Of a stretch of 60,861 nucleotides of DNA, positions 15,728-60,104 are shown piece after piece. Under the pieces are notes generated by a model. It made no database searches. It saw only the letters and a program-made list of their open reading frames with translations, and had not been told where the DNA came from. Both the position numbers and the translations under genes were made by a program. Position 1 is the stretch's first letter. Every line of letters begins with the position of its first letter. The stretch is from an uncultured virus (IMG/VR IMGVR_UViG_3300008107_000009) (taxonomy: Duplodnaviria > Heunggongvirae > Uroviricota > Caudoviricetes). The stretch lies in the IMG/VR virus record IMGVR_UViG_3300008107_000009. One strand, given 5' to 3'.

Positions 15728-17440
15728 TTATGGAGCTTCAGCTGCTGCTGGCTCTGCTGGGGGTTCAGGGGTAGCTGCCGGCTCCTCTGCTGCGGGTGCT
15801 TCTGGTTCATCCGCCGGAGTTGATTCTGTGGTATCTGCTGCAGGAGGTTCTATAGAGGCTCCCCCTCCTGCTCCGCCGTCCCCTTCAACCTTAATTTCAG
15901 CATTTTCTTCTTCGTCTTTCTTCTTATAGATTTCATTTACCCTACGATCCTCGTTGGTTAATCCGAGGAATTTATCTATTAAGAAGTCTTGACTAAAATA
16001 AGGATTTTCTTCCTCGCCTTTCTTTTCCTTAATTTCTGAAAGTCCTGCTATAAAATCTATTTTTTTAATCAGCTGTTCAATCTCTTTGGATTCTCCAAAT
16101 TGATTATCAGAGTTCCATTTGATACCTAGCTGAGATCTGAAAACTGCGTCATTTTTCAATTCTGGATGATCTAACGTCATTTGGATCCAAAGAGGTTTAA
16201 GCATGATCTCTTGATAGATCGATCTGATTCTATTAATGAACTTATTGTATCTGATTTCATCTCTTTCAGCAGATTCAGCACCTATCTTGTAAGTTCCAAC
16301 TGTTCCGCCTGATCTAGCAGCAAATCTGTTAAAAGGTATTTTAGAGTCTGCCTTAAGCTTATTGAAAAAGTATACAACAGCATCTATGATATTAAGATTT
16401 GGTCCAGCAGAATTGATGGTCTCAATCTTAGGAGATTCCCCACCTTGAACTGGGAAAAGATAGTTTTTATAAAACTGTAAATTGGGTCTTCCGTTAACAC
16501 TCAGTTCGCCTGATTCTGTGTTTAATTTGATATCCTCTTTATACATGGTCATCAATTCACCTAAAGTCTCTTTTGCTTTTTGTGGAGATCTAGATCCAAC
16601 TGGAATTGTCATCTTAATTCTGAAAGAGGCATTCATCACATTCCAGATAATTCTGGTATGCTCCATAATCTTTAAAAGATTATGTGAACGTATCAATCTT
16701 TCACAGTAACTAGTTCTACTAGCGCTATTTCCTTTGGCAAATGAAATATAAATGACTTGAGAATCGTAAAGCCTTCTTTCTCTAGTACTATCTCCATAAT
16801 ATTGAATCCAGATAGGAATCGTCTCCCCCGACTGGTTTCTTTCTGTTGTCGGGGTCAATGATGTTGGATCCAATTCTTTAAATCCTACAATTTGCCTTCC
16901 ATCATCAGAATAAACAATTTCGAAAGATAAAAATCCGTCAATTAAAAACTGTCTAAAATATTGCCAAGCGGATATCCCATTATTAAATCCATGGGAGATA
17001 TACATTTTTCTAAAGTTATCTCTTAATGAATCAACAACATCTTCTTTGAGATCCATATTAACAAGAGATAGACTACAACAAAAATTTCTATCATCGTAAA
17101 CTATAGCTTCATCAGCAAGAATATCAAGGATCCATTCTATTTCTGCATTTAAAGCAAACCTGCGTAAAAACTCTCTCTTAAAAGGATAGTCTTTATCAAA
17201 GTAAGCAATATACTTTCTGTTACTAGTGTCTTGAGAAGCCAAACTAAAAATGAAATCTTCATCTGAATCGGTAAGACCCATTCTTTCCCTCATCATTGCT
17301 TCGGAAACACCAATGGCCTGTGAATTTTTCACAACAAGATCCTTATACTCCATTCCGAAGCTTCCTATCTTGCTCACACTCTTAAGGATCTTTCCTATAT
17401 TAGGATTCCTTTGTGAAAAATCATCTATAAATCCTGCCAT
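15728..17440 (-). CDS. Portal vertex protein (T4 gp20-like), paralog B
   Basis: EIEWILDILADEAIVYD, FRQFLIDG, ELDP, SYCERLIRSHNLLKIME, AERDEIRYNKFINRIR and DNQFGE. Confidence 0.9.
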   Translation of the reverse strand: MAGFIDDFSQRNPNIGKILKSVSKIGSFGMEYKDLVVKNSQAIGVSEAMMRERMGLTDSDEDFIFSLASQDTSNRKYIAYFDKDYPFKREFLRRFALNAEIEWILDILADEAIVYDDRNFCCSLSLVNMDLKEDVVDSLRDNFRKMYISHGFNNGISAWQYFRQFLIDGFLSFEIVYSDDGRQIVGFKELDPTSLTPTTERNQSGETIPIWIQYYGDSTRERRLYDSQVIYISFAKGNSASRTSYCERLIRSHNLLKIMEHTRIIWNVMNASFRIKMTIPVGSRSPQKAKETLGELMTMYKEDIKLNTESGELSVNGRPNLQFYKNYLFPVQGGESPKIETINSAGPNLNIIDAVVYFFNKLKADSKIPFNRFAARSGGTVGTYKIGAESAERDEIRYNKFINRIRSIYQEIMLKPLWIQMTLDHPELKNDAVFRSQLGIKWNSDNQFGESKEIEQLIKKIDFIAGLSEIKEKKGEEENPYFSQDFLIDKFLGLTNEDRRVNEIYKKKDEEENAEIKVEGDGGAGGGASIEPPAADTTESTPADEPEAPAAEEPAATPEPPAEPAAAEAP

Positions 17441-17443
17441 TTA

Positions 17444-19087
17444 TTAAAGTTTAAATTCGTCTCCTCCTTCTGTTCCTGCTCCTTCTGTTCCTGCTCCTTC
17501 TTCTGCCGCTGGAGCCGTCTCTGCTGCTTTTTTAGCTTCCTCTTCAGCGGCTTTCTTCTTTTTCTCAGCATCTCTTTCCTTGGCTTTCTCGTTAGCTACC
17601 CTGTCATCGTCAGTCATACCTAAGTACTTGTCGAGCACATATCTTAATGAAAAATAAGGTTTACCTTCAGAATCAGTCAATCCTGAAATTTTTGTTACCT
17701 GATCTTTTCTAGCATTTAGAATCTCCATGTATCTTATTTCAGCAAAAGAATTATCTTTCACATAATCCAAACCAAATTGGCTCTTAACCATAAAATCCTT
17801 CTTATGCTCCGGATAATCCAAACAAAATTGGATCCAAAGGGGTTTTACAAGAATGTCCTGGAAGATAGATCTTAATCTGGTTATAAATTTAAAGAATCTT
17901 ATTTCTTCTTGATCCAATCCTTCTGCGTTACCACTAAAAGTTCCTTGTGTTCCTCTATCTTCACGATCAAATCTCGAATATGGAATTTTAGAATCAAGTT
18001 TTAATTTATCAGCAAAATAAGCTAAAGCTTTAAGATCGCTAAAAGGTGTTGCGTCCCCGGATCCTGCTAATGGAGCAATGTCTGGTGTTCCGTTCGGGGT
18101 TGAAGGCATTAAATAATTCTTGAAGAACTGAATGTTAGGTCTACCGTTTACGAAAAGTTCACCAGAATCCGAATCTAATCTGATATCTTCTTTATAGATA
18201 CTCATTAATTCTGCAAGACTTTGCTTGGCCTTTTGTGGTGATTTAGTTCCGATCGGAACTGTCATGGTCATTCTATAGGAAGAATTCATTACATTCCAGA
18301 TCACCCTGGTGTGTTCCATGATTCTCAAAAGATTAAACGATCTAATTAATCTTTCGATATAGCTTACCCTCGTCATTGTATTTCCCTTTGCATAGGAAAT
18401 ATAAATGATCTGAGAATCATATAATTTTCTGGTTAGAGCAGGGTTATCTGGATATTGTATCCAGCACTCAACAAAAGATCCATCCATCTGTTTTTCGACA
18501 GACGGAAGAAGAGATGCTGGGTCTAATTCCTTAAACCCAATAATATTTTTTCCCTTTGTGTCAAAAATAATTTCAAATGCCAGAATACCATCAATGAGGA
18601 AGTTTCTAAAAAAATGCCATCCTGAAATGTCCTGATTAAATCCAAATAAATTATAGATCTCTTTATACCTTTCTTGAATTTTAGCTTCTTTTTTCTCCCC
18701 AATCCCATGAATGTCTGTACTAACAAAATAGGAGAAAAAGTTTTTATCATCATAAACTATCGCTTCGTCACAAACTGTATCGAGAATAAATTCAATTTCG
18801 GGGTTAAGAGCAAAATTTCTTAAATAGGTCTTTTTGTTCTTGTAATCTTTATCGAAATAAGCAATATACTGTTTCGCAGTAGTGTCAGCTTTTCTGAGGG
18901 TATAAAGGAAATTTTCGTCCAGAATTCCACCCTTTTGCGTGAAAATCGCTTCAGTAGTACCAACGGCCTGGGAGTTTTTAACAACCATATCCCCATAGCT
19001 CATCCCAAATGACCCTATTTTTCTAAGAGCACTTAGAACGTTGCTAAAAAATGGATTATTTCTGTTGTTTTCTAAAAATCCTGCCAT
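17444..19087 (-). CDS. Portal vertex protein (T4 gp20-like), paralog A
   Basis: PEIEFILDTVCDEAIVYD, FRNFLIDG, ELDP, SYIERLIRSFNLLRIME, KIPYSRF, EEIRFFKFITRLR and DNSFAE. Confidence 0.9.
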   Translation of the reverse strand: MAGFLENNRNNPFFSNVLSALRKIGSFGMSYGDMVVKNSQAVGTTEAIFTQKGGILDENFLYTLRKADTTAKQYIAYFDKDYKNKKTYLRNFALNPEIEFILDTVCDEAIVYDDKNFFSYFVSTDIHGIGEKKEAKIQERYKEIYNLFGFNQDISGWHFFRNFLIDGILAFEIIFDTKGKNIIGFKELDPASLLPSVEKQMDGSFVECWIQYPDNPALTRKLYDSQIIYISYAKGNTMTRVSYIERLIRSFNLLRIMEHTRVIWNVMNSSYRMTMTVPIGTKSPQKAKQSLAELMSIYKEDIRLDSDSGELFVNGRPNIQFFKNYLMPSTPNGTPDIAPLAGSGDATPFSDLKALAYFADKLKLDSKIPYSRFDREDRGTQGTFSGNAEGLDQEEIRFFKFITRLRSIFQDILVKPLWIQFCLDYPEHKKDFMVKSQFGLDYVKDNSFAEIRYMEILNARKDQVTKISGLTDSEGKPYFSLRYVLDKYLGMTDDDRVANEKAKERDAEKKKKAAEEEAKKAAETAPAAEEGAGTEGAGTEGGDEFKL

Positions 19088-20153: not shown

Positions 20154-20502
20154 TGAAGTTCTGATTATCATCTCTAGTTAACCTAGAAAAAGATATTGTT
20201 TTTATAGATCTTGTAGAATGTATTTTTTTCCATCCTTTTTGCATACCATTTTTAGCTATCTGTGAGATAAATGCGAACGGGTTGTCTGATTTATTGGGAT
20301 CGAATCTGTCCCAATATTTAATTAGATCCTCCATTCCGAAAGCAATACAATCCTCTTTATCTTCGATATCTCGATAAGATTTAGTTTTAGAAAGACCATT
20401 AACAATAAGTGTAAACATCTTTACCGTTTCTGCTGTCAATCTTCCTTTTTCTTTGGATTCTAGCAATGCCCTTTTAAGCTCTTTGTTTTTAACATACTCC
20501 AT
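20146..20502 (-). CDS. Late-transcription sigma factor (T4 gp55-like), short form
   Basis: YVKNKEL and DCIAFGMEDLIKYWDRFDPNKSDNPFAFISQIAKN. Confidence 0.8.
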   Translation of the reverse strand: MEYVKNKELKRALLESKEKGRLTAETVKMFTLIVNGLSKTKSYRDIEDKEDCIAFGMEDLIKYWDRFDPNKSDNPFAFISQIAKNGMQKGWKKIHSTRSIKTISFSRLTRDDNQNFNV

Positions 20503-20744
20503 TAGTTTTGTGGGAAATTATTTTCTAGTTTGCCTATCTGGCCTTCAACATCTTTTTTTAGGGCTTCTAGGTTTTTTATTGAGTCTTCAATAGTACTCAA
20601 TCCTATCTTACTACTAGCATGACTAGTTGTTTCCAATTCTTTTAATTTACCTAAAATGTCTTGTAGGTCTTCCTGGAAAAGAAAAAGTTCGTTTCCGATA
20701 CCCTCAGAAACGAACTTTTCGTAATTTTCAGAAATACTATTTAC
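20502..20744 (-). CDS. 80-codon -1-frame extension of the upstream 758-aa gene (no ATG of its own)
   Basis: The open frame VNSISENYEKFVSEGIGNEL...GKLENNFPQN* begins at the A AAA AAG slip site and ends in a TAATG overlap with the gp55-like start. Confidence 0.75.
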   Translation of the reverse strand, partial: VNSISENYEKFVSEGIGNELFLFQEDLQDILGKLKELETTSHASSKIGLSTIEDSIKNLEALKKDVEGQIGKLENNFPQN

Positions 20745-20753
20745 TTTTTTTTT
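20670..20753 (-). promoter_or_regulatory. Candidate -1 programmed ribosomal frameshift signal (slippery A AAA AAG plus downstream stem-loop)
   Basis: mRNA reads UCA AAA AAA AAG UAA. A perfect 13-bp inverted repeat sits at 20683-20695 / 20707-20719 and can be extended to start about 9 nt after the slip site. Confidence 0.7.
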
Positions 20754-23017
20754 GAAGCAGGTGCTTTTGCAAGGGTTGCTCTGTTAAGAGGTTCATGATC
20801 TTTCTTGCCATTTTTCTTGTGATTACCTGGTGCTTCTGCTAATTCAGCATCATCTAAATCTTCTACGAATTTTTTAGGTTTTTCAGATTTTCCTTTAGGT
20901 GCTTTTTCAACATGCGAATTCTTTTGTGATTCAGAAAGTTTGTGATTTTTCAAATTGTCAATAAATTTAGGAGCTGCGCCTGCACTTGTGCCAGGAGCTT
21001 CTGCCAGGTTCATATTACCTTCTTTATCGATGAATTTTTTATCTTTTCCAGATTTTCCCTCTGGAGCGGAAGCTAATTCATGATTTCCAGTTACTCCTCT
21101 AGGATCTTTAGCAGATTTAGCTTGCTTATTAGGGGCTTCAGATAGGTTATGATTTCCTAAATTATCAATATCTTTAGCAGATCCCCCAGCAGATTTAGAA
21201 GGTGCCTCAGCTAAATTCATATCAGCATCTAGGCCTTCGTTTGCTTCTGATCCTTCTATTTCTATGTTTTCGATTGATTCTTCGCCTAGATCATTTACTG
21301 GTTTAAGTTCAATGTTTTCAATTTCGTCTGAAATATCAACTACATCATTAAAGAAGTATTCTCCCGTTCTACCGTTTTCAAACATAACAGTGTATGTTTT
21401 AGAATTACCGTTAACCCCTACAACCTTACCTTTTTCTCCGTTTCTTCTGATCTTAACGTCTGTGTTTATTTGATATCCGTCACTTTCGTTAACTGAAGAA
21501 ACCTTTTTAGCATACTTTTCAAATCTCTCGATTTCAACATTGATTTGGTTCCATTTATCTTTTAGAGATTCAGATTCTTTTTGAAGCATTGCTTGAGCTT
21601 CTTTAATCTCTTGAGATCCAGTAAGAGATGGATTATCCTGAATTGCTTTTGCAATTTTTGCCATTTCACTTTCAACAATAGACATGTTGTTCTTAATAGC
21701 TTGCTTATCGTTTCTCATGATAGCTAAAGCTCTATCTTCGTTTTCTAGAATATCTGACATTGATTCAGAAATATCAAATCCTAAAAATTCTTTAACTATA
21801 TTAACTGCCTGTGTTCCGTTACCCTCGAATAAATCATTCTTCTTCATAGCTGGGTTAACTTTGTGAACATAAACTTTTTGTCCGAATCTAAATACGTTAG
21901 CTTCTACCCCTTCGTATATTTTAGAAACGATTTTTTTACCAAAATCAATTTCAGAAAGGAAATTAGCAGCTTTTACTACTTCAGTAGCTTGTTCTACTAT
22001 ACTTGCAGAAGATTGGAACGAATTTCTCAATTCCATAGAAAGGATAAATCCTAATCTGTCTTCTGGAATTCTTTTTCCGTTAAGGAATACTGCCTTTGTT
22101 TCGGTGTCACTTTCAAAAACTACAGAAAGCTTATTTTTCCCGATGAACATATCTAAACCATTCTCGTTAATTCTTACAGCAGGATTGCTAAGTGATAAAG
22201 CTGCTTTTAAGAATTTTCCAGGGAGTTTAGAAGCTTCTGCTCTTTCCATAACAGATACGCCTCTTTGAGTTGCCTTGAAGAATCTATCTGAAGTAACAAA
22301 AACCGAATGGTTCTCAAAAACTAAACTTGGCGCTATGATAGATTTTACCTCGCAATTTTCAGAATTAACATTGATAGAGAATTTACCATTGCTTCCCTCA
22401 AGCTGTGTAAACTTCTCAACCAAGCTTCTAACTGTTGGATTGAAGGACCATTTTTTAAGGTCATTAACCAGTTTCTCAGAAACCCTGTTCTCTGTGTCTA
22501 ACCAAGTTCTCATTGATTCAACAATAGAAGAGAAAAGGTCTCTGCCTCCTGATCTATTAATATCTTCGATTGCCTTAGCAACTTCGATTTCTTTTCTGTT
22601 TTTTTCGTAAATCTTCTTTAGATTAACTAAAGAGCTTTTAGCGTGTTTTTCCCAGCTAAAATTTTCCAATTCTGAAATCATAGATTCAATTAAGAAAGCT
22701 TCAGAAACTCCTTTAATTGATGCATGATGAATGTATTTTTCAACCAAAATCTTAGCTTCATGTAATTCAACGAAAGATGTATTATTCAAAGCCATTGCAG
22801 TTTCTAAAACACCAACAGAGAAAGTTGGTTTAGATATCTTAGTTCCTTGAGCAGATGCTTGAGCAATCTCTTTTTGTAGACCATCAACGTAGGATCCAGC
22901 TGTGCCTGGTCCAAATGCCTTGGTTCCTGCCCAACTTTCATTTAAACTGTTTGCAGCAGCCTTAGCCTTTTCCATTTTAATTTGGTCTAGATTATTGTCA
23001 AAGTTAATTCTATCCAT
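20741..23017 (-). CDS. Probable prohead core or internal head protein with coiled coil, SH3-like domain and C-terminal LAEAP repeats
   Basis: 758 aa with about 7 repeats of roughly 23 aa carrying L-A/S-E/K/S-A-P, plus LNES, VNES and LSES sites. GATATATA motifs lie upstream at 23040-23047 and 23101-23108. Confidence 0.55.
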   Translation of the reverse strand: MDRINFDNNLDQIKMEKAKAAANSLNESWAGTKAFGPGTAGSYVDGLQKEIAQASAQGTKISKPTFSVGVLETAMALNNTSFVELHEAKILVEKYIHHASIKGVSEAFLIESMISELENFSWEKHAKSSLVNLKKIYEKNRKEIEVAKAIEDINRSGGRDLFSSIVESMRTWLDTENRVSEKLVNDLKKWSFNPTVRSLVEKFTQLEGSNGKFSINVNSENCEVKSIIAPSLVFENHSVFVTSDRFFKATQRGVSVMERAEASKLPGKFLKAALSLSNPAVRINENGLDMFIGKNKLSVVFESDTETKAVFLNGKRIPEDRLGFILSMELRNSFQSSASIVEQATEVVKAANFLSEIDFGKKIVSKIYEGVEANVFRFGQKVYVHKVNPAMKKNDLFEGNGTQAVNIVKEFLGFDISESMSDILENEDRALAIMRNDKQAIKNNMSIVESEMAKIAKAIQDNPSLTGSQEIKEAQAMLQKESESLKDKWNQINVEIERFEKYAKKVSSVNESDGYQINTDVKIRRNGEKGKVVGVNGNSKTYTVMFENGRTGEYFFNDVVDISDEIENIELKPVNDLGEESIENIEIEGSEANEGLDADMNLAEAPSKSAGGSAKDIDNLGNHNLSEAPNKQAKSAKDPRGVTGNHELASAPEGKSGKDKKFIDKEGNMNLAEAPGTSAGAAPKFIDNLKNHKLSESQKNSHVEKAPKGKSEKPKKFVEDLDDAELAEAPGNHKKNGKKDHEPLNRATLAKAPASKKK

Positions 23018-23152
23018 TTTGAGGGATTTATTTTTATTCTATATATCTACGATTTAAAACCATTCTTTAAGCTTTTAGTCTTTAAAGTCAGCATATTCAT
23101 TATATATCGAAAATTTTAGAAGGTATTCAATCAATTATTGATACTTCCTAAT

Positions 23153-57618: not shown

Positions 57619-57699
57619 TATCGTGTTTATATGATCATTTTATGAGAAATTTCCAAAAATATTTCAGATGTGGGCTTTATTTTTTTGATATATAAAAAA

Positions 57700-58521
57700 A
57701 TGAAAAGAATCTTAGACTTTACTGGGTTTATCAACGAAGGATTTATAGGAACGCATTCCGCTTTTATATTTGTTCCTGTTGATAAAAACTTCAAATCAGT
57801 GGATAAAAATCTATCAACCTCCGATACCAAATTTCCTTCGGAACTTTTAGGAACTGGCGGGGTAGCTGGATATGTATTGGTTCCATGTACTGTGGAAACC
57901 TCCCAATTTATTAATAGCCCGCATTTTAAATCAGAAACTCCAGAAGTTAAGGGAGGTATTTCATATAGTAGAAGCGCAAATCAGGATGGATATACGGTAA
58001 TGAATTCTCCAGCTGATATGGTGTCGGGATCACTAACAGGAAAGGCTTCAATTTTTTCTGAGATCCCTGGATTTGGTCAAAATGTTGCTTTTTATTTTAA
58101 ATCTGGTAACGCATTGATACTTGAAATTCTAATGAAAAAACAAGGATGGGACGAAGAAGTAGTAAAGAACATCAGAAAAAAAATTGCAAACGGATTCGAA
58201 ACTAACAAGGCTTTACAATTCTCATTTTATGGAGGAATGGATTTCCAGATAGAAACAATTAAAAAACTTTTTGCGGCATCTTCCGAGGACATCGGTTTAA
58301 AATTTGCAAATCCCAAAGAGATGCAGGAACCGGAATTTGATGTAACTCAGGAATTATTAGATCTCTTTAATCAAAAGCCCGGAGACTTTGTTGCATTAAA
58401 TTTCTCAGAAGGTGTTTTTGATATGATTTCAAATCTTGCAAAAGAAAAAGGAACAGAAAACGTAGCACAAACTATAGACAATCTTGGCGATCTCAAATCA
58501 GCAGGATTTTTCGAGGATTAA
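57700..58521 (+). CDS. Hypothetical late protein with capsid-targeting-like N-terminus
   Basis: MKRILDFTGFINEG. GATATATA at 57687-57694 supports a start at ATG 57700. Confidence 0.7.
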   Translation: MKRILDFTGFINEGFIGTHSAFIFVPVDKNFKSVDKNLSTSDTKFPSELLGTGGVAGYVLVPCTVETSQFINSPHFKSETPEVKGGISYSRSANQDGYTVMNSPADMVSGSLTGKASIFSEIPGFGQNVAFYFKSGNALILEILMKKQGWDEEVVKNIRKKIANGFETNKALQFSFYGGMDFQIETIKKLFAASSEDIGLKFANPKEMQEPEFDVTQELLDLFNQKPGDFVALNFSEGVFDMISNLAKEKGTENVAQTIDNLGDLKSAGFFED

Positions 58522-58535
58522 AAAAAAATAAAAAA

Positions 58536-60104
58536 ATGAAAAGAATCAAAGGATTTCAAGAGTTTAATAGACTTAATGAAGCTGGGATATTTTCCAGGGG
58601 AGCAGAATTACTAAAAAAAGCAGGAAACTGGCTAATGAATTTAATCCGTGCAGAAAAGGAAGGGGAAATTCCAGTTAGAGACAAAAAATACAATCCGGAG
58701 ACTGGAAGGTTCGAACAATTCAAAGACGCAAATGGTAATATAGCAAAAGCACGGAGTGTTGTAAAGGTTTACCTTCCAGAGGGTGATGCTGGCAGTTCGT
58801 ATAACTTTAGATCCGGATCGATTTCTTCAATTAAAGAATCTGATGATCCATCTTGGAAAACTGCTCAAAAGACCCAAGACTCTCAAATAACTGACGTTGA
58901 TGCTGATCAGTTAACGGGGGAACTATCATATCACTTCCAGAAACCAGAAACTGGTAGACCATTATTAATTTGGGGAGCACCAGGAATTGGTAAAACCTCC
59001 GTGGTAAAATCTTTTGGGACTAAGGGAATGGGTGTTCCTGTTATCGAGGTAATTCTAAGTTTAATGGAACCGACGGATGTTGCCGGATTACCTGGTGCTG
59101 AAAAGGATGTAGATTACGACGTAAAAAGATCAGTAAATTATTTACCAATGATTTGGCCTTTAGATAACGGAGACCGAGAAATCAAGAGGGAAGATGGCAC
59201 TATAGAAAAAATCGAGGGGAAGGGTGGAATTATATTCTTAGACGAGATTAACAGAGCACACCCATCGGTTCAAGCGGCAATGCTCAAAGTTGTTTTGGAC
59301 AGAGAAATCACAAGTGCTAATTATAAAATTCCTAGCAAATGGCTAATTCTAGCTGCAGCAAATAGACCGGAGGATGAACCAGGATCTATGATTAAACCAA
59401 TGAGCTTCGCACTAGCCAATAGATTTGCTCAAGTCAATTTTATTTCCGATCCTGTATCTTGGACAAAATGGGCAAGGGGAAGAAAAGAAGCAGATCTAAG
59501 CGACGAGGTTATAGCATTTGTAGAACTTATGCAGGATTATTTCTATGTTTTACCTAGCGGATTAGTTGGAGGAGATATTGAAACTACAATGGGTGTTACA
59601 CCAAGAGCATGGGAATATGCTGCTAGAGAATATAAAGAAAGGAGAGACGCACAAAAAGAAAAAGGAGGGGATATCTCAGCAGAAACTACCAGACTTATCT
59701 TCGATAAACACATTGGTAAAAAAGTATCATCAATTATTACAGATTTCCTTGAAACGATGAAGGTTTGGCCAGTTAATAGAATAGAAAAGATATTTACGGA
59801 TCCTAGCGATGAAACAGTAAAACTTCCAATGAGTTCTAATACTGGAAGAGTTGATCTGAGAAAAGGCTATAGCATCATGTACTTAGCATCCAAATACAAA
59901 AACGGACAACAGTTAACAAAAGATGAATTCACTAATTTTATAACATATCTAACAGATTTAAACACAGGAGAATTAGCTATGAGTGCATTAAACATGGCAA
60001 AAAGAACTCATCCGGAAATCAAAAACTATTTGGGTGATACCTCTCTAGAACAATATGTAACACCATTTGTGAACAGATATAGATCTTTAATGAAAGAAAT
60101 CTAG
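58536..60104 (+). CDS. MoxR/AAA_5-like ATPase with capsid-targeting-like N-terminus
   Basis: WGAPGIGKT, EPTDVAGLP, IFLDEINRA, AAANRPED, ALANRF and TPRAWE; N-terminus MKRIKGFQEFNRLNE. Confidence 0.9.
   Translation: MKRIKGFQEFNRLNEAGIFSRGAELLKKAGNWLMNLIRAEKEGEIPVRDKKYNPETGRFEQFKDANGNIAKARSVVKVYLPEGDAGSSYNFRSGSISSIKESDDPSWKTAQKTQDSQITDVDADQLTGELSYHFQKPETGRPLLIWGAPGIGKTSVVKSFGTKGMGVPVIEVILSLMEPTDVAGLPGAEKDVDYDVKRSVNYLPMIWPLDNGDREIKREDGTIEKIEGKGGIIFLDEINRAHPSVQAAMLKVVLDREITSANYKIPSKWLILAAANRPEDEPGSMIKPMSFALANRFAQVNFISDPVSWTKWARGRKEADLSDEVIAFVELMQDYFYVLPSGLVGGDIETTMGVTPRAWEYAAREYKERRDAQKEKGGDISAETTRLIFDKHIGKKVSSIITDFLETMKVWPVNRIEKIFTDPSDETVKLPMSSNTGRVDLRKGYSIMYLASKYKNGQQLTKDEFTNFITYLTDLNTGELAMSALNMAKRTHPEIKNYLGDTSLEQYVTPFVNRYRSLMKEI

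Follow-up and report, generated by a model that had tools for sequence, protein, structure and literature searches.

What can follow from a gene that ends in a run of nine adenines (A9) and a stop codon, when the −1 frame stays open for 80 further codons that hold no ATG? The question is raised by a locus in a 60,861-nt stretch of DNA, hereafter the window, which is one part of the uncultured virus record IMGVR_UViG_3300008107_000009 (219,355 bp, estimated to be 79% complete, GC content about 36%). There, an open reading frame (ORF) for a protein of 758 amino acids (aa) ends at such a run, and a preliminary description of the sequence had proposed that a −1 ribosomal frameshift at this point extends a phage head protein by an 80-aa coiled coil. 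Comparison with relatives indicates that the site is a real, conserved and ancient instance of programmed recoding and not an assembly error; the kind of recoding is known, and it is met here in a lineage of T4-related giant phages. The questions of which enzyme slips, what a nearby RNA hairpin does, and what the two protein forms are call for separate answers, and for different degrees of confidence.

The 3′ end of the ORF reads GCT TCA AAA AAA AAG TAA, with the shift site directly against the stop codon and no Shine–Dalgarno stimulator beside it. The −1 frame, which encodes the peptide VNSISENYEK...NNFPQN, is closed by a stop codon 13 codons upstream of the first V of the extension, has a TTG at codon 37 as its sole canonical start, and ends in a TAA that overlaps the ATG of a 118-aa sigma-factor ORF as TAATG. 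All the earlier statements about the letters themselves, i.e., the end of the ORF, the heptamer, the 80-codon frame devoid of ATG and the TAATG overlap, proved correct, on the minus strand. Runs of at least nine A or T are rare in this genome: the window has 2, versus 8.4 expected, and the whole 219,355 bp have 5.

Relatives of the 758-aa protein were collected from viral contigs, starting with 21 loci to which 80 and then 36 were added by means of alignments of distant homologues. After 13 of the last 36 loci had been dropped as duplicates of earlier contigs, along with 6 loci ending before the gene stop, the set comprised 118 loci with a readable gene end, corresponding to 72 distinct 260-nt contexts from many metagenomes; the contigs, up to 434 kb long, belong to uncultured freshwater phages. 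A run of at least nine A's is found at the gene end in 70 of the 72 contexts, down to 30% protein identity, and the arrangement of A9, one base and the stop codon recurs in 67, the base being C in 36, G in 25 and T in 6. Two contexts have A10, and two others (L105 and L106/107) lack the run. In L100 the A9 is followed by a zero-frame stop only 13 codons later, TAA having become CAA, and in L103/104 the zero-frame stop comes one codon later. In all 69 contexts counted, A is the last base of the codon that precedes the run (TCA 28, ACA 19, TTA 10, CTA 5, GTA 4, GCA 2, AGA 1), and the base that follows the run differs between and even within clades, so that the heptamers of the relatives are A_AAA_AAG, A_AAA_AAC, A_AAA_AAT or A_AAA_AAA; L009/L010 have C at this place and keep both the hairpin and the −1 ORF. 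At the protein level, the big protein has 97 homologues, of which 82 have KKK or KKN as their last residues. None of these 97 is a fused form of about 838 aa, and the homologues of 843–849 aa owe their extra length solely to more repeats. The only subclade without the run, L105-107, has also lost the extension ORF; its sigma gene is preceded instead by about 170 nt of intergenic sequence that holds two terminator-like hairpins, and the extension profile, when run on this stretch, gave no match.

The extension behaves as coding sequence from its first codons. Its frame is open for 80–86 codons in the clade close to the window (the near clade) and for 50–62 codons in the distant clade, except for L084 (77), and variability follows the order 3 > 1 > 2 over the codon positions of the −1 frame in both clades, while both other frames hold stops in all the distinct sequences (26/26 near-clade and 40/40 distant-clade). 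An alignment of 17 near-clade extensions has a mean column identity of 66% and 15 invariant residues. Start codons are frequently missing: ATG is absent from 17 of the 26 near-clade ORFs, and all three of ATG, GTG and TTG are absent from 4 of them and from 10 of the 14 extension ORFs of one distant type. When the extension profile was searched against 1.84 billion representative proteins, neither a fused nor a full-length standalone form appeared; the 8 matches were all N-truncated gene calls of 45–74 aa, with internal starts that differ from one to the next. The distant-clade extension is a different peptide, which continues the ‘xAP’ repeats of the tail of the main protein (a weak similarity, E 0.012).

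From the conserved site, the coding signature of the −1 ORF, the missing starts, the lack of any fusion and the joint loss of run and ORF, we infer that a long isoform is made. The proposal of two isoforms arising by a −1 shift is in this way borne out by the relatives, in which the site, the −1 ORF and the hairpin with its covariation are all conserved and simple fusions were not found, the long form itself being read from sequence comparison.

The hairpin deserves attention in its own right, as it lies inside the extension ORF. The perfect stem AAAAGUUCGUUUC/GAAACGAACUUUU, earlier given 13 bp, is present and is lengthened by RNAfold to 17 pairs, and the irregular lower stem that had been noted about 9 nt after the heptamer is present as well, with 6 bp (Table 1). 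A 121-nt region containing both folds at −32.4 kcal/mol (z = −4.98), a stability reached by none of 200 shuffles, and the 26 distinct near-clade sequences all give z values of −3.0 to −9.0; in the distant clade z ≤ −3 is reached by only 4 of 42 sequences, and a common structure is lacking. In an alignment of 24 hairpins with 12 pairs, 94.6% of the cells are paired versus 85.4% in shuffles (0/500 reach this value), although the arms were picked by anchoring on conserved ends, which somewhat favours structure. Compensatory changes occur in 6 of the 12 pairs, with 35 cells changed on both sides (0/500 shuffles), and slid controls pair in 27–50%. Moreover, at two neighbouring pairs the U-A/C-G of some subclades corresponds to C-G/U-A in others, and the residues encoded by both arms differ accordingly (EFV...NEL versus ES...NRL), which argues for selection on the RNA. 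On these alignments, the hairpin is real and covaries.

Table 1. Features of the shift locus and its surroundings, in window coordinates
Feature	Position	Strand	Remarks
Candidate late-type promoter element, GATATATA motif	23040..23047	minus	23–30 nt ahead of the start codon (ATG) of the 758-aa gene
758-aa ORF, zero-frame product	20741..23017	minus	97 homologues, all unnamed
A9 run (T9 on the plus strand), shift site	20745..20753	minus	Holds the overlapping heptamers A_AAA_AAA and A_AAA_AAG
Heptamer A_AAA_AAG	20744-20750	minus	In frame, last two codons of the 758-aa ORF
Zero-frame TAA stop	20741..20743	minus	Directly after the run and G
−1 frame extension, 80 codons	20505..20744	minus	Reached by recoding only; from GTA (20744); TAA at 20502-20504
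RNA hairpin in the extension ORF	20670..20734	minus	Main stem 20682-20720, 17 bp, 5-nt loop
Lower stem, weaker, 6 bp	20729-20734 with 20670-20675	minus	Begins 9 nt after the heptamer
U-rich tract after the 3′ arm, CUUUUUCUUUUCC	20673..20688	minus	With the hairpin, resembles an intrinsic terminator
gp55-like late sigma gene, 118 aa	20146..20502	minus	Sigma70_r2 and PHROG 234 late sigma factor; ATG overlaps the extension stop

Whether such a hairpin could stimulate frameshifting is another matter. In the window its main stem begins 23 nt beyond the heptamer, and in the relatives 16–27 nt beyond, while the lower stem is seen in the window and in only some relatives; a passage in PMC3458567 gives 5–8 nt as the typical spacing of a frameshift stimulator. 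All 26 sequences have a U-rich tail behind the 3′ arm (6–8 T within the first 10 nt, after a stem of 12–17 pairs), and in L105-107 a plain terminator-like hairpin begins 22 nt beyond the stop. On account of the spacing, the U-rich tail and this plain counterpart, the element looks more like a terminator or attenuator placed within the extension ORF than like a classical stimulator; the stimulating role first assigned to it appears weak, even though the hairpin itself stands. What shaped the U tract is ambiguous, because it also encodes conserved hydrophobic residues (LFLF / LSFF / LSFIL), and the terminator consensus scan of the window did not list the hairpin and U tract. A search of Rfam returned nothing near the gathering score, the best row, a PyrG leader (E 0.29, 26.6 versus 65 bits), being taken as chance. 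In 8 of the 18 distant loci read, of the LSRNF type (2b subclade), a canonical terminator follows the extension stop and not the zero-frame stop, which means that the transcription unit there ends beyond the extension. Two further elements were observed in this region. A near subclade (L017, L020, L118-L136) has a second strong hairpin, e.g., UUAGACGAUUUAAAAGAUUGUCUAA encoding LDDLKDCL, directly after the U tract and about 66–100 nt after the zero-frame stop, and one distant subclade (L025, L027, L028, L039 and others) has a conserved perfect palindrome, AACCTCGAGGTT, in the 60–70-nt spacer between the extension and the sigma gene, in the place of a terminator.

To see which feature of the site is under selection, slippery words were counted over the 185 ORFs (65,899 codons) of the genome, with expectations drawn from synonymous-codon shuffles. 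In-frame A_AAA_AAG occurs 27 times versus 32.1±4.5 expected, A_AAA_AAC 34 times versus 29.9, and A_AAA_AAT 65 times versus 67.1, while A_AAA_AAA occurs 46 times versus 80.8±5.6. Coding runs of at least nine A's number 2 versus 15.2 expected, and those of at least eight 22 versus 51.5. The phage avoids long A runs, not the plain heptamer. Together with the ninth A, kept over seven different preceding codons, and with the variable next base, this depletion of long runs without avoidance of the heptamer suggests that the target of selection is the nine-A run and not A_AAA_AAG, and it is for this reason that slippage by the RNA polymerase is ranked slightly above ribosomal frameshifting. Bacterial transcription slips on runs of nine A or T, as noted in PMC5009743 in connection with dnaX, and A7 and U7 are described in part of PMC4066793 as under-represented in all frames, possibly through slippage.

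On this basis we put forward, with moderate confidence, a shift that depends on run length, caused for the greater part by RNA-polymerase slippage on A9/T9 and to a smaller extent by ribosomal slippage; that the two both contribute is probable. For the production of the long isoform, the slipping enzyme, the ratio of the forms and the role of the hairpin, what we infer is the following. The late gene would give mostly the 758-aa protein that ends at TAA, and a minority form of 838 aa would arise when decoding goes on in the −1 frame from the A9 into the 80 additional codons. The polymerase would slip on A9/T9 and add one A, and the resulting A10 transcripts would then be read normally into the extension, with ribosomal −1 slippage on A_AAA_AAA or A_AAA_AAG, beside the stop, as the second and smaller contributor in the near clade. 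Lying 23 nt beyond the site, where sister clades have plain terminators, the hairpin with its U tract would serve as a terminator, an attenuator or a stabiliser of the transcript of the big gene, and not as a stimulator.

Several observations weigh against giving the polymerase the leading part. The near clade joins A_AAA_AAG, the best −1 heptamer in bacteria, to an adjacent stop and a conserved, covarying 3′ hairpin, and in the window, where the lower stem sets in 9 nt past the heptamer, these elements compose the classical signature of a ribosomal frameshift. The two overlapping heptamers in A9 could explain selection for a longer run under a ribosomal model as well. Ribosomal frameshifting on A_AAA_AAC without a known stimulator is reported as proven in a passage of PMC4066793, so that a part for ribosomes is compatible with the distant clades too. 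A hairpin that ended the majority of transcripts would leave the shifted ribosomes to reach the end of truncated mRNAs. Long runs are not wholly barred from genes, as a T9 lies inside a 319-aa ORF (L142). Finally, in the RNA libraries (5 runs with 5–12% of the words found), the contigs, which come from 4 runs and cannot reveal minority variants, do not span the A run, one of them ending at 20772.

The other long runs can be listed here as observations in their own right. The second A9 of the window, at 58520-58528 on the plus strand, overlaps the stop of the ORF 57670-58521 in the short spacer before the ORF 58536-60104 and lies outside any coding frame. The only other coding A9 of the genome (G000:C1:7362-7370, minus strand; locus L141, 963-971) stands 2 codons before the stop of a 163-aa ORF, and a 167-aa ORF in the −1 frame begins across this stop (ATGA), the two proteins of which would be fused by a −1 shift; among the sequences found elsewhere, this run has identical copies only. 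The T9 of L142 (1044-1052; G000:C1:17643-17651) is mid-way in its ORF, on the opposite strand; it is prone to slippage and has no evident second frame.

The strongest competing explanation is classical programmed −1 ribosomal frameshifting, as the preliminary description supposed, in which two tRNA-Lys slip in tandem on A_AAA_AAG, helped by slow termination at the TAA and by the hairpin, while the mRNA remains A9 throughout; we treat it as a serious but tentative possibility. The heptamer is in frame, the stop directly adjacent in the 67 contexts counted above, and the conserved hairpin with its compensatory changes lies downstream, accompanied by the lower stem 9 nt after the heptamer in the window and some relatives; in addition, the G after the run and the hairpin co-occur in the near clade, and the phage encodes a tRNA-Lys(UUU), with no tRNA-Lys(CUU) among its 21 tRNA genes. 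Precedents exist in the coat-protein extensions of T3/T7 and Lactobacillus phage A2, as described in PMC5009743. What tells against this account is that the main stem lies too far from the site by the usual measure and the lower stem is not conserved, that L009/L010 exchanged G for C with no loss of hairpin or ORF, and that the distant clades use A9 followed by C or T without a shared structure. Furthermore, the ninth A, which completes the NNA codon, is conserved though unneeded for a single heptamer, and the 27 in-frame copies of A_AAA_AAG elsewhere in the genome occur at the expected frequency. Of the ribosomal proposal, the in-frame heptamer and the adjacent stop are sound, yet it is the run and not the heptamer that is conserved, which leaves polymerase slippage at least as likely. 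The tRNA genes just mentioned, among them Lys(UUU), Asn(GUU) and two Met, lie outside the window at G000:C1:41802-66097 with a gene for tmRNA (tag ...GADYAIAA); phage tmRNA and tRNA-Lys(UUU) could bear both on slippage and on the rescue of ribosomes from truncated transcripts.

Two further readings turn on the genes that follow. Downstream of the gp55-like sigma gene are genes for a gp4-like head-closure protein, a gp2-like DNA end protector and a gp20-type portal, and the order big gene, sigma, gp4-like, gp2-like, portal is kept in 26 of the 29 loci examined, in all clades; the exceptions are L083, without a gp2 match, and two loci cut at the contig end. In the window the portal gene occurs as a tandem pair on the minus strand (15728-17440 and 17444-19087; 570 and 547 aa, 48% identical over 544 residues), both copies matching PHROG 213 and the 547-aa copy also Pfam Portal_T4.

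As for their transcription, a GATATATA-type word is present within 70 nt upstream of the big gene in all 34 relatives examined, out of the 118 loci, in all clades. ATATATA occurs 19 times on the gene strand of the window versus 4 times on the other, and 12 of the 19 lie within 60 nt upstream of starts, including those of the portal gene, an 838-aa tail-fibre gene and the 758-aa gene; words of the GATATATA/ATATATA type stand 12–31 nt before many starts, other sites being, e.g., 19109, 11366, 39694 and 44550. We regard this word, from its placement, as a candidate late promoter of the lineage. Its being shared with the portal and tail-fibre genes suggests late expression of the 758-aa gene, the promoter-like word being the one indication of it. 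For TATAAATA, the late promoter word of T4, the window gave 0 matches where 6.7 were expected, hence T4-type late promoters are not used as such, and scans for the sigma-70 and terminator consensus gave nothing useful near the site. The big and the portal genes have one GATATATA-type motif each, but none stands ahead of the sigma, gp4-like and gp2-like genes. The expression of these three genes therefore seems to depend on read-through past the hairpin element, and this apparent dependence prompts a further reading, namely a recoding-gated attenuator.

In such an attenuator, which we consider unlikely though worth stating, the hairpin together with the U tract would act as an intrinsic terminator gated by the shift into the −1 frame. 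The terminator would form when translation ends at the zero-frame TAA, and the hairpin would be melted when the leading ribosome is in the −1 frame, on an A10 transcript or after a slip. If this were true, the shift rate would set the ratio of short to long protein and also the read-through from the GATATATA promoter into the late-sigma, gp4-like and gp2-like genes, creating a feedback loop on late transcription.

A related reading, in which the peptide is incidental and the site exists to let ribosomes or transcription pass the stop and so regulate the sigma, gp4-like and gp2-like genes, strikes us as quite improbable. It can draw on the missing motif before these genes, on the position of the hairpin and U tract just past the footprint of a ribosome at the TAA, and on the overlap of the extension stop with the sigma start in 15 of 21 close loci (4 others have a 5-nt gap, 1 a larger gap and 1 is irregular). 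It has to contend with a peptide that is under purifying selection, with invariant residues and a confidently predicted fold, and with the distant clades, where the extension ends 31–125 nt, or more than 1 kb, before the sigma gene, a terminator lying between the two in the 2b loci. L105-107, moreover, express an independent sigma gene without any extension, and as a Shine–Dalgarno-like motif is found in just 5 of the 46 genes of the window, the sigma start looks like any other. Obligatory translational coupling to the sigma gene is not general, as these distant gaps and the independent gene of L105-107 make plain; the earlier suggestion that the shift rate could set gp55 translation fits the overlap in most close loci and does not extend to the distant ones.

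That there is no recoding at all, the site being a homopolymer assembly error in a continuous gene, the extension a separate small gene with an unusual start, or the whole a decaying remnant, is very improbable, for although a near-identical contig has A8, gene callers place short ORFs in the region (8 clusters, 45–74 aa) and the window offers its one TTG, the same frame arrangement recurs in 118 loci, no fusion exists among the homologues or in the profile search, the coding signature and conservation set in with the first codons after the run, and many relatives lack any start codon while the called internal starts differ between clusters. The contig with A8 comes from the same phage population, and its protein P0007 ends in SKKSK, in the +1 frame; it may be a genuine variant in run length or an error at the homopolymer.

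What, then, would the two forms be? The name ‘head protein’ given to the 758-aa product could not be upheld: it has no Pfam or PHROG family match, no match among the sequences of solved structures, and its model gave nothing at E ≤ 0.001 in a Foldseek search of the PDB, where only generic pieces (a Tudor/SH3-like barrel, a helical hairpin) were returned. BFVD yielded uncharacterised myovirus proteins only (E down to 3.7e-23), including one of Tenacibaculum phage PTm1, the wide list of VIA-align was filled by the generic helical hairpin 413-505, and ESM Atlas was also searched for a function. A tblastn search of phage records found only a 24% match, in LR756500.1, whose 617-aa homologue is without the repeat tail and without A9. 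Weak matches to PF20297 (SH3 domain) occur in 23 of 37 family members. In the AlphaFold2 model, built from 37 sequences (mean pLDDT 67), a core of residues about 65–565, mostly at 70–90, is predicted to comprise a helical N-domain, a beta-rich middle, a long helical hairpin (421–501) and a small SH3/Tudor-like barrel (520–561), followed by a C-terminal tail (569–758) that falls below 50, is disordered in the model and has about seven ‘xLAxAP’ repeats.

The extension is modelled by AlphaFold2 with a mean pLDDT of 81.2 and helices at 4–13, 16–44 and 49–75, i.e., it is predicted to be a short helix followed by a two-helix hairpin. The label ‘coiled coil’ holds in part, in that a helical hairpin is predicted; its helical amphipathicity is modest (0.31 versus 0.20 in shuffles, a fraction of 0.017 of which reach 0.31). 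A fold search found generic antiparallel hairpins only (E ≥ 0.89), and no relatives of the extension were found in phage records. If the models hold, the long form would be a protein with a small folded module, the helical hairpin, placed at the end of a flexible, disordered repeat tether of about 190 residues.

Several well-studied systems can be set beside this one. In Thermus thermophilus, dnaX is expressed through transcriptional slippage on an A9 run. In dnaX generally, the shift takes place within the gene and gives the shorter of the two products, and the hairpin of the ribosomal version is spaced by about 6 nt. The locus described here resembles dnaX in having both A_AAA_AAG, as in Escherichia coli, and a run of nine A's, as in Thermus, in the two forms that one gene would yield at a set ratio, and in the 3′ hairpin of the near clade; it differs in that the shift would lengthen the protein, the site abuts the stop, there is no Shine–Dalgarno stimulator, and the hairpin is 16–27 nt away. 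For E. coli dnaX, the abstract of PMC4344849 describes the heptamer A_AAA_AAG in combination with structural barriers.

Extension of phage virion proteins at the C-terminus, through a frameshift near the gene end, is described in PMC5009743 for gene 10A/10B of T7/T3, for the major head protein of Lactobacillus phage A2 and for the Listeria phages A118, A500 and PSA; for T7, the same review reports that a transcription-terminator sequence more than 200 nt downstream affects shifting. As in those phages, a minority of a late protein would gain tens of residues from another frame at the 3′ end of its gene. Their carriers are known capsid or tail proteins, however, and the extensions of T3 and A2 are Ig-like, whereas here a predicted helical hairpin on a disordered tail is reached from an A9 homopolymer in a T4-related giant phage. 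The gpG/gpGT pair of lambda, also covered there, offers short and long forms whose fixed ratio comes from a −1 shift close to the 3′ end of a late gene. Unlike that pair, the present gene has no tape-measure context, being followed by sigma, gp4-like, gp2-like and portal genes, and its protein is about five times larger and has no tail-chaperone family match. With the slippage sites of bacterial genes and insertion sequence (IS) elements, it shares nine A's on the sense strand, a conserved run length, a −1 frame that one extra A would open, and a genome in which long runs are otherwise depleted; unlike them, it is a phage late gene, presumably transcribed by the host polymerase with a phage sigma factor, and has a conserved hairpin downstream. 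Literature searches found no description of a frameshift of this kind in T4-related giant phages.

Concerning the host, the small number of Shine–Dalgarno-like motifs and the A-rich leaders of the window genes fit a bacterium that initiates translation without Shine–Dalgarno pairing, e.g., one of the Bacteroidota, and the portal is nearest to uncultured ‘huge phage’ records and to the Prevotella Lak phages. These two features, along with the structural relative in Tenacibaculum phage PTm1, make a host among the Bacteroidota likely.

For the study of these phages, a first consequence is practical. Gene callers miss the 838-aa form and call truncated ORFs of 45–74 aa in its stead, so that a family of uncultured freshwater phages would have an unannotated second product of a conserved late gene. 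The family also supplies natural variants that separate polymerase from ribosomal slippage, such as A9 followed by G with a hairpin, A9 followed by C or T without one, A10, a displaced stop, and the loss of run and ORF. Beyond this, the site has been kept while the extension was replaced, with two more disordered repeats in one clade and a folded helical hairpin in another, and it would therefore seem that selection favours the ratio of short to long form as such. Lastly, the family may link recoding to transcription termination upstream of a late sigma gene.

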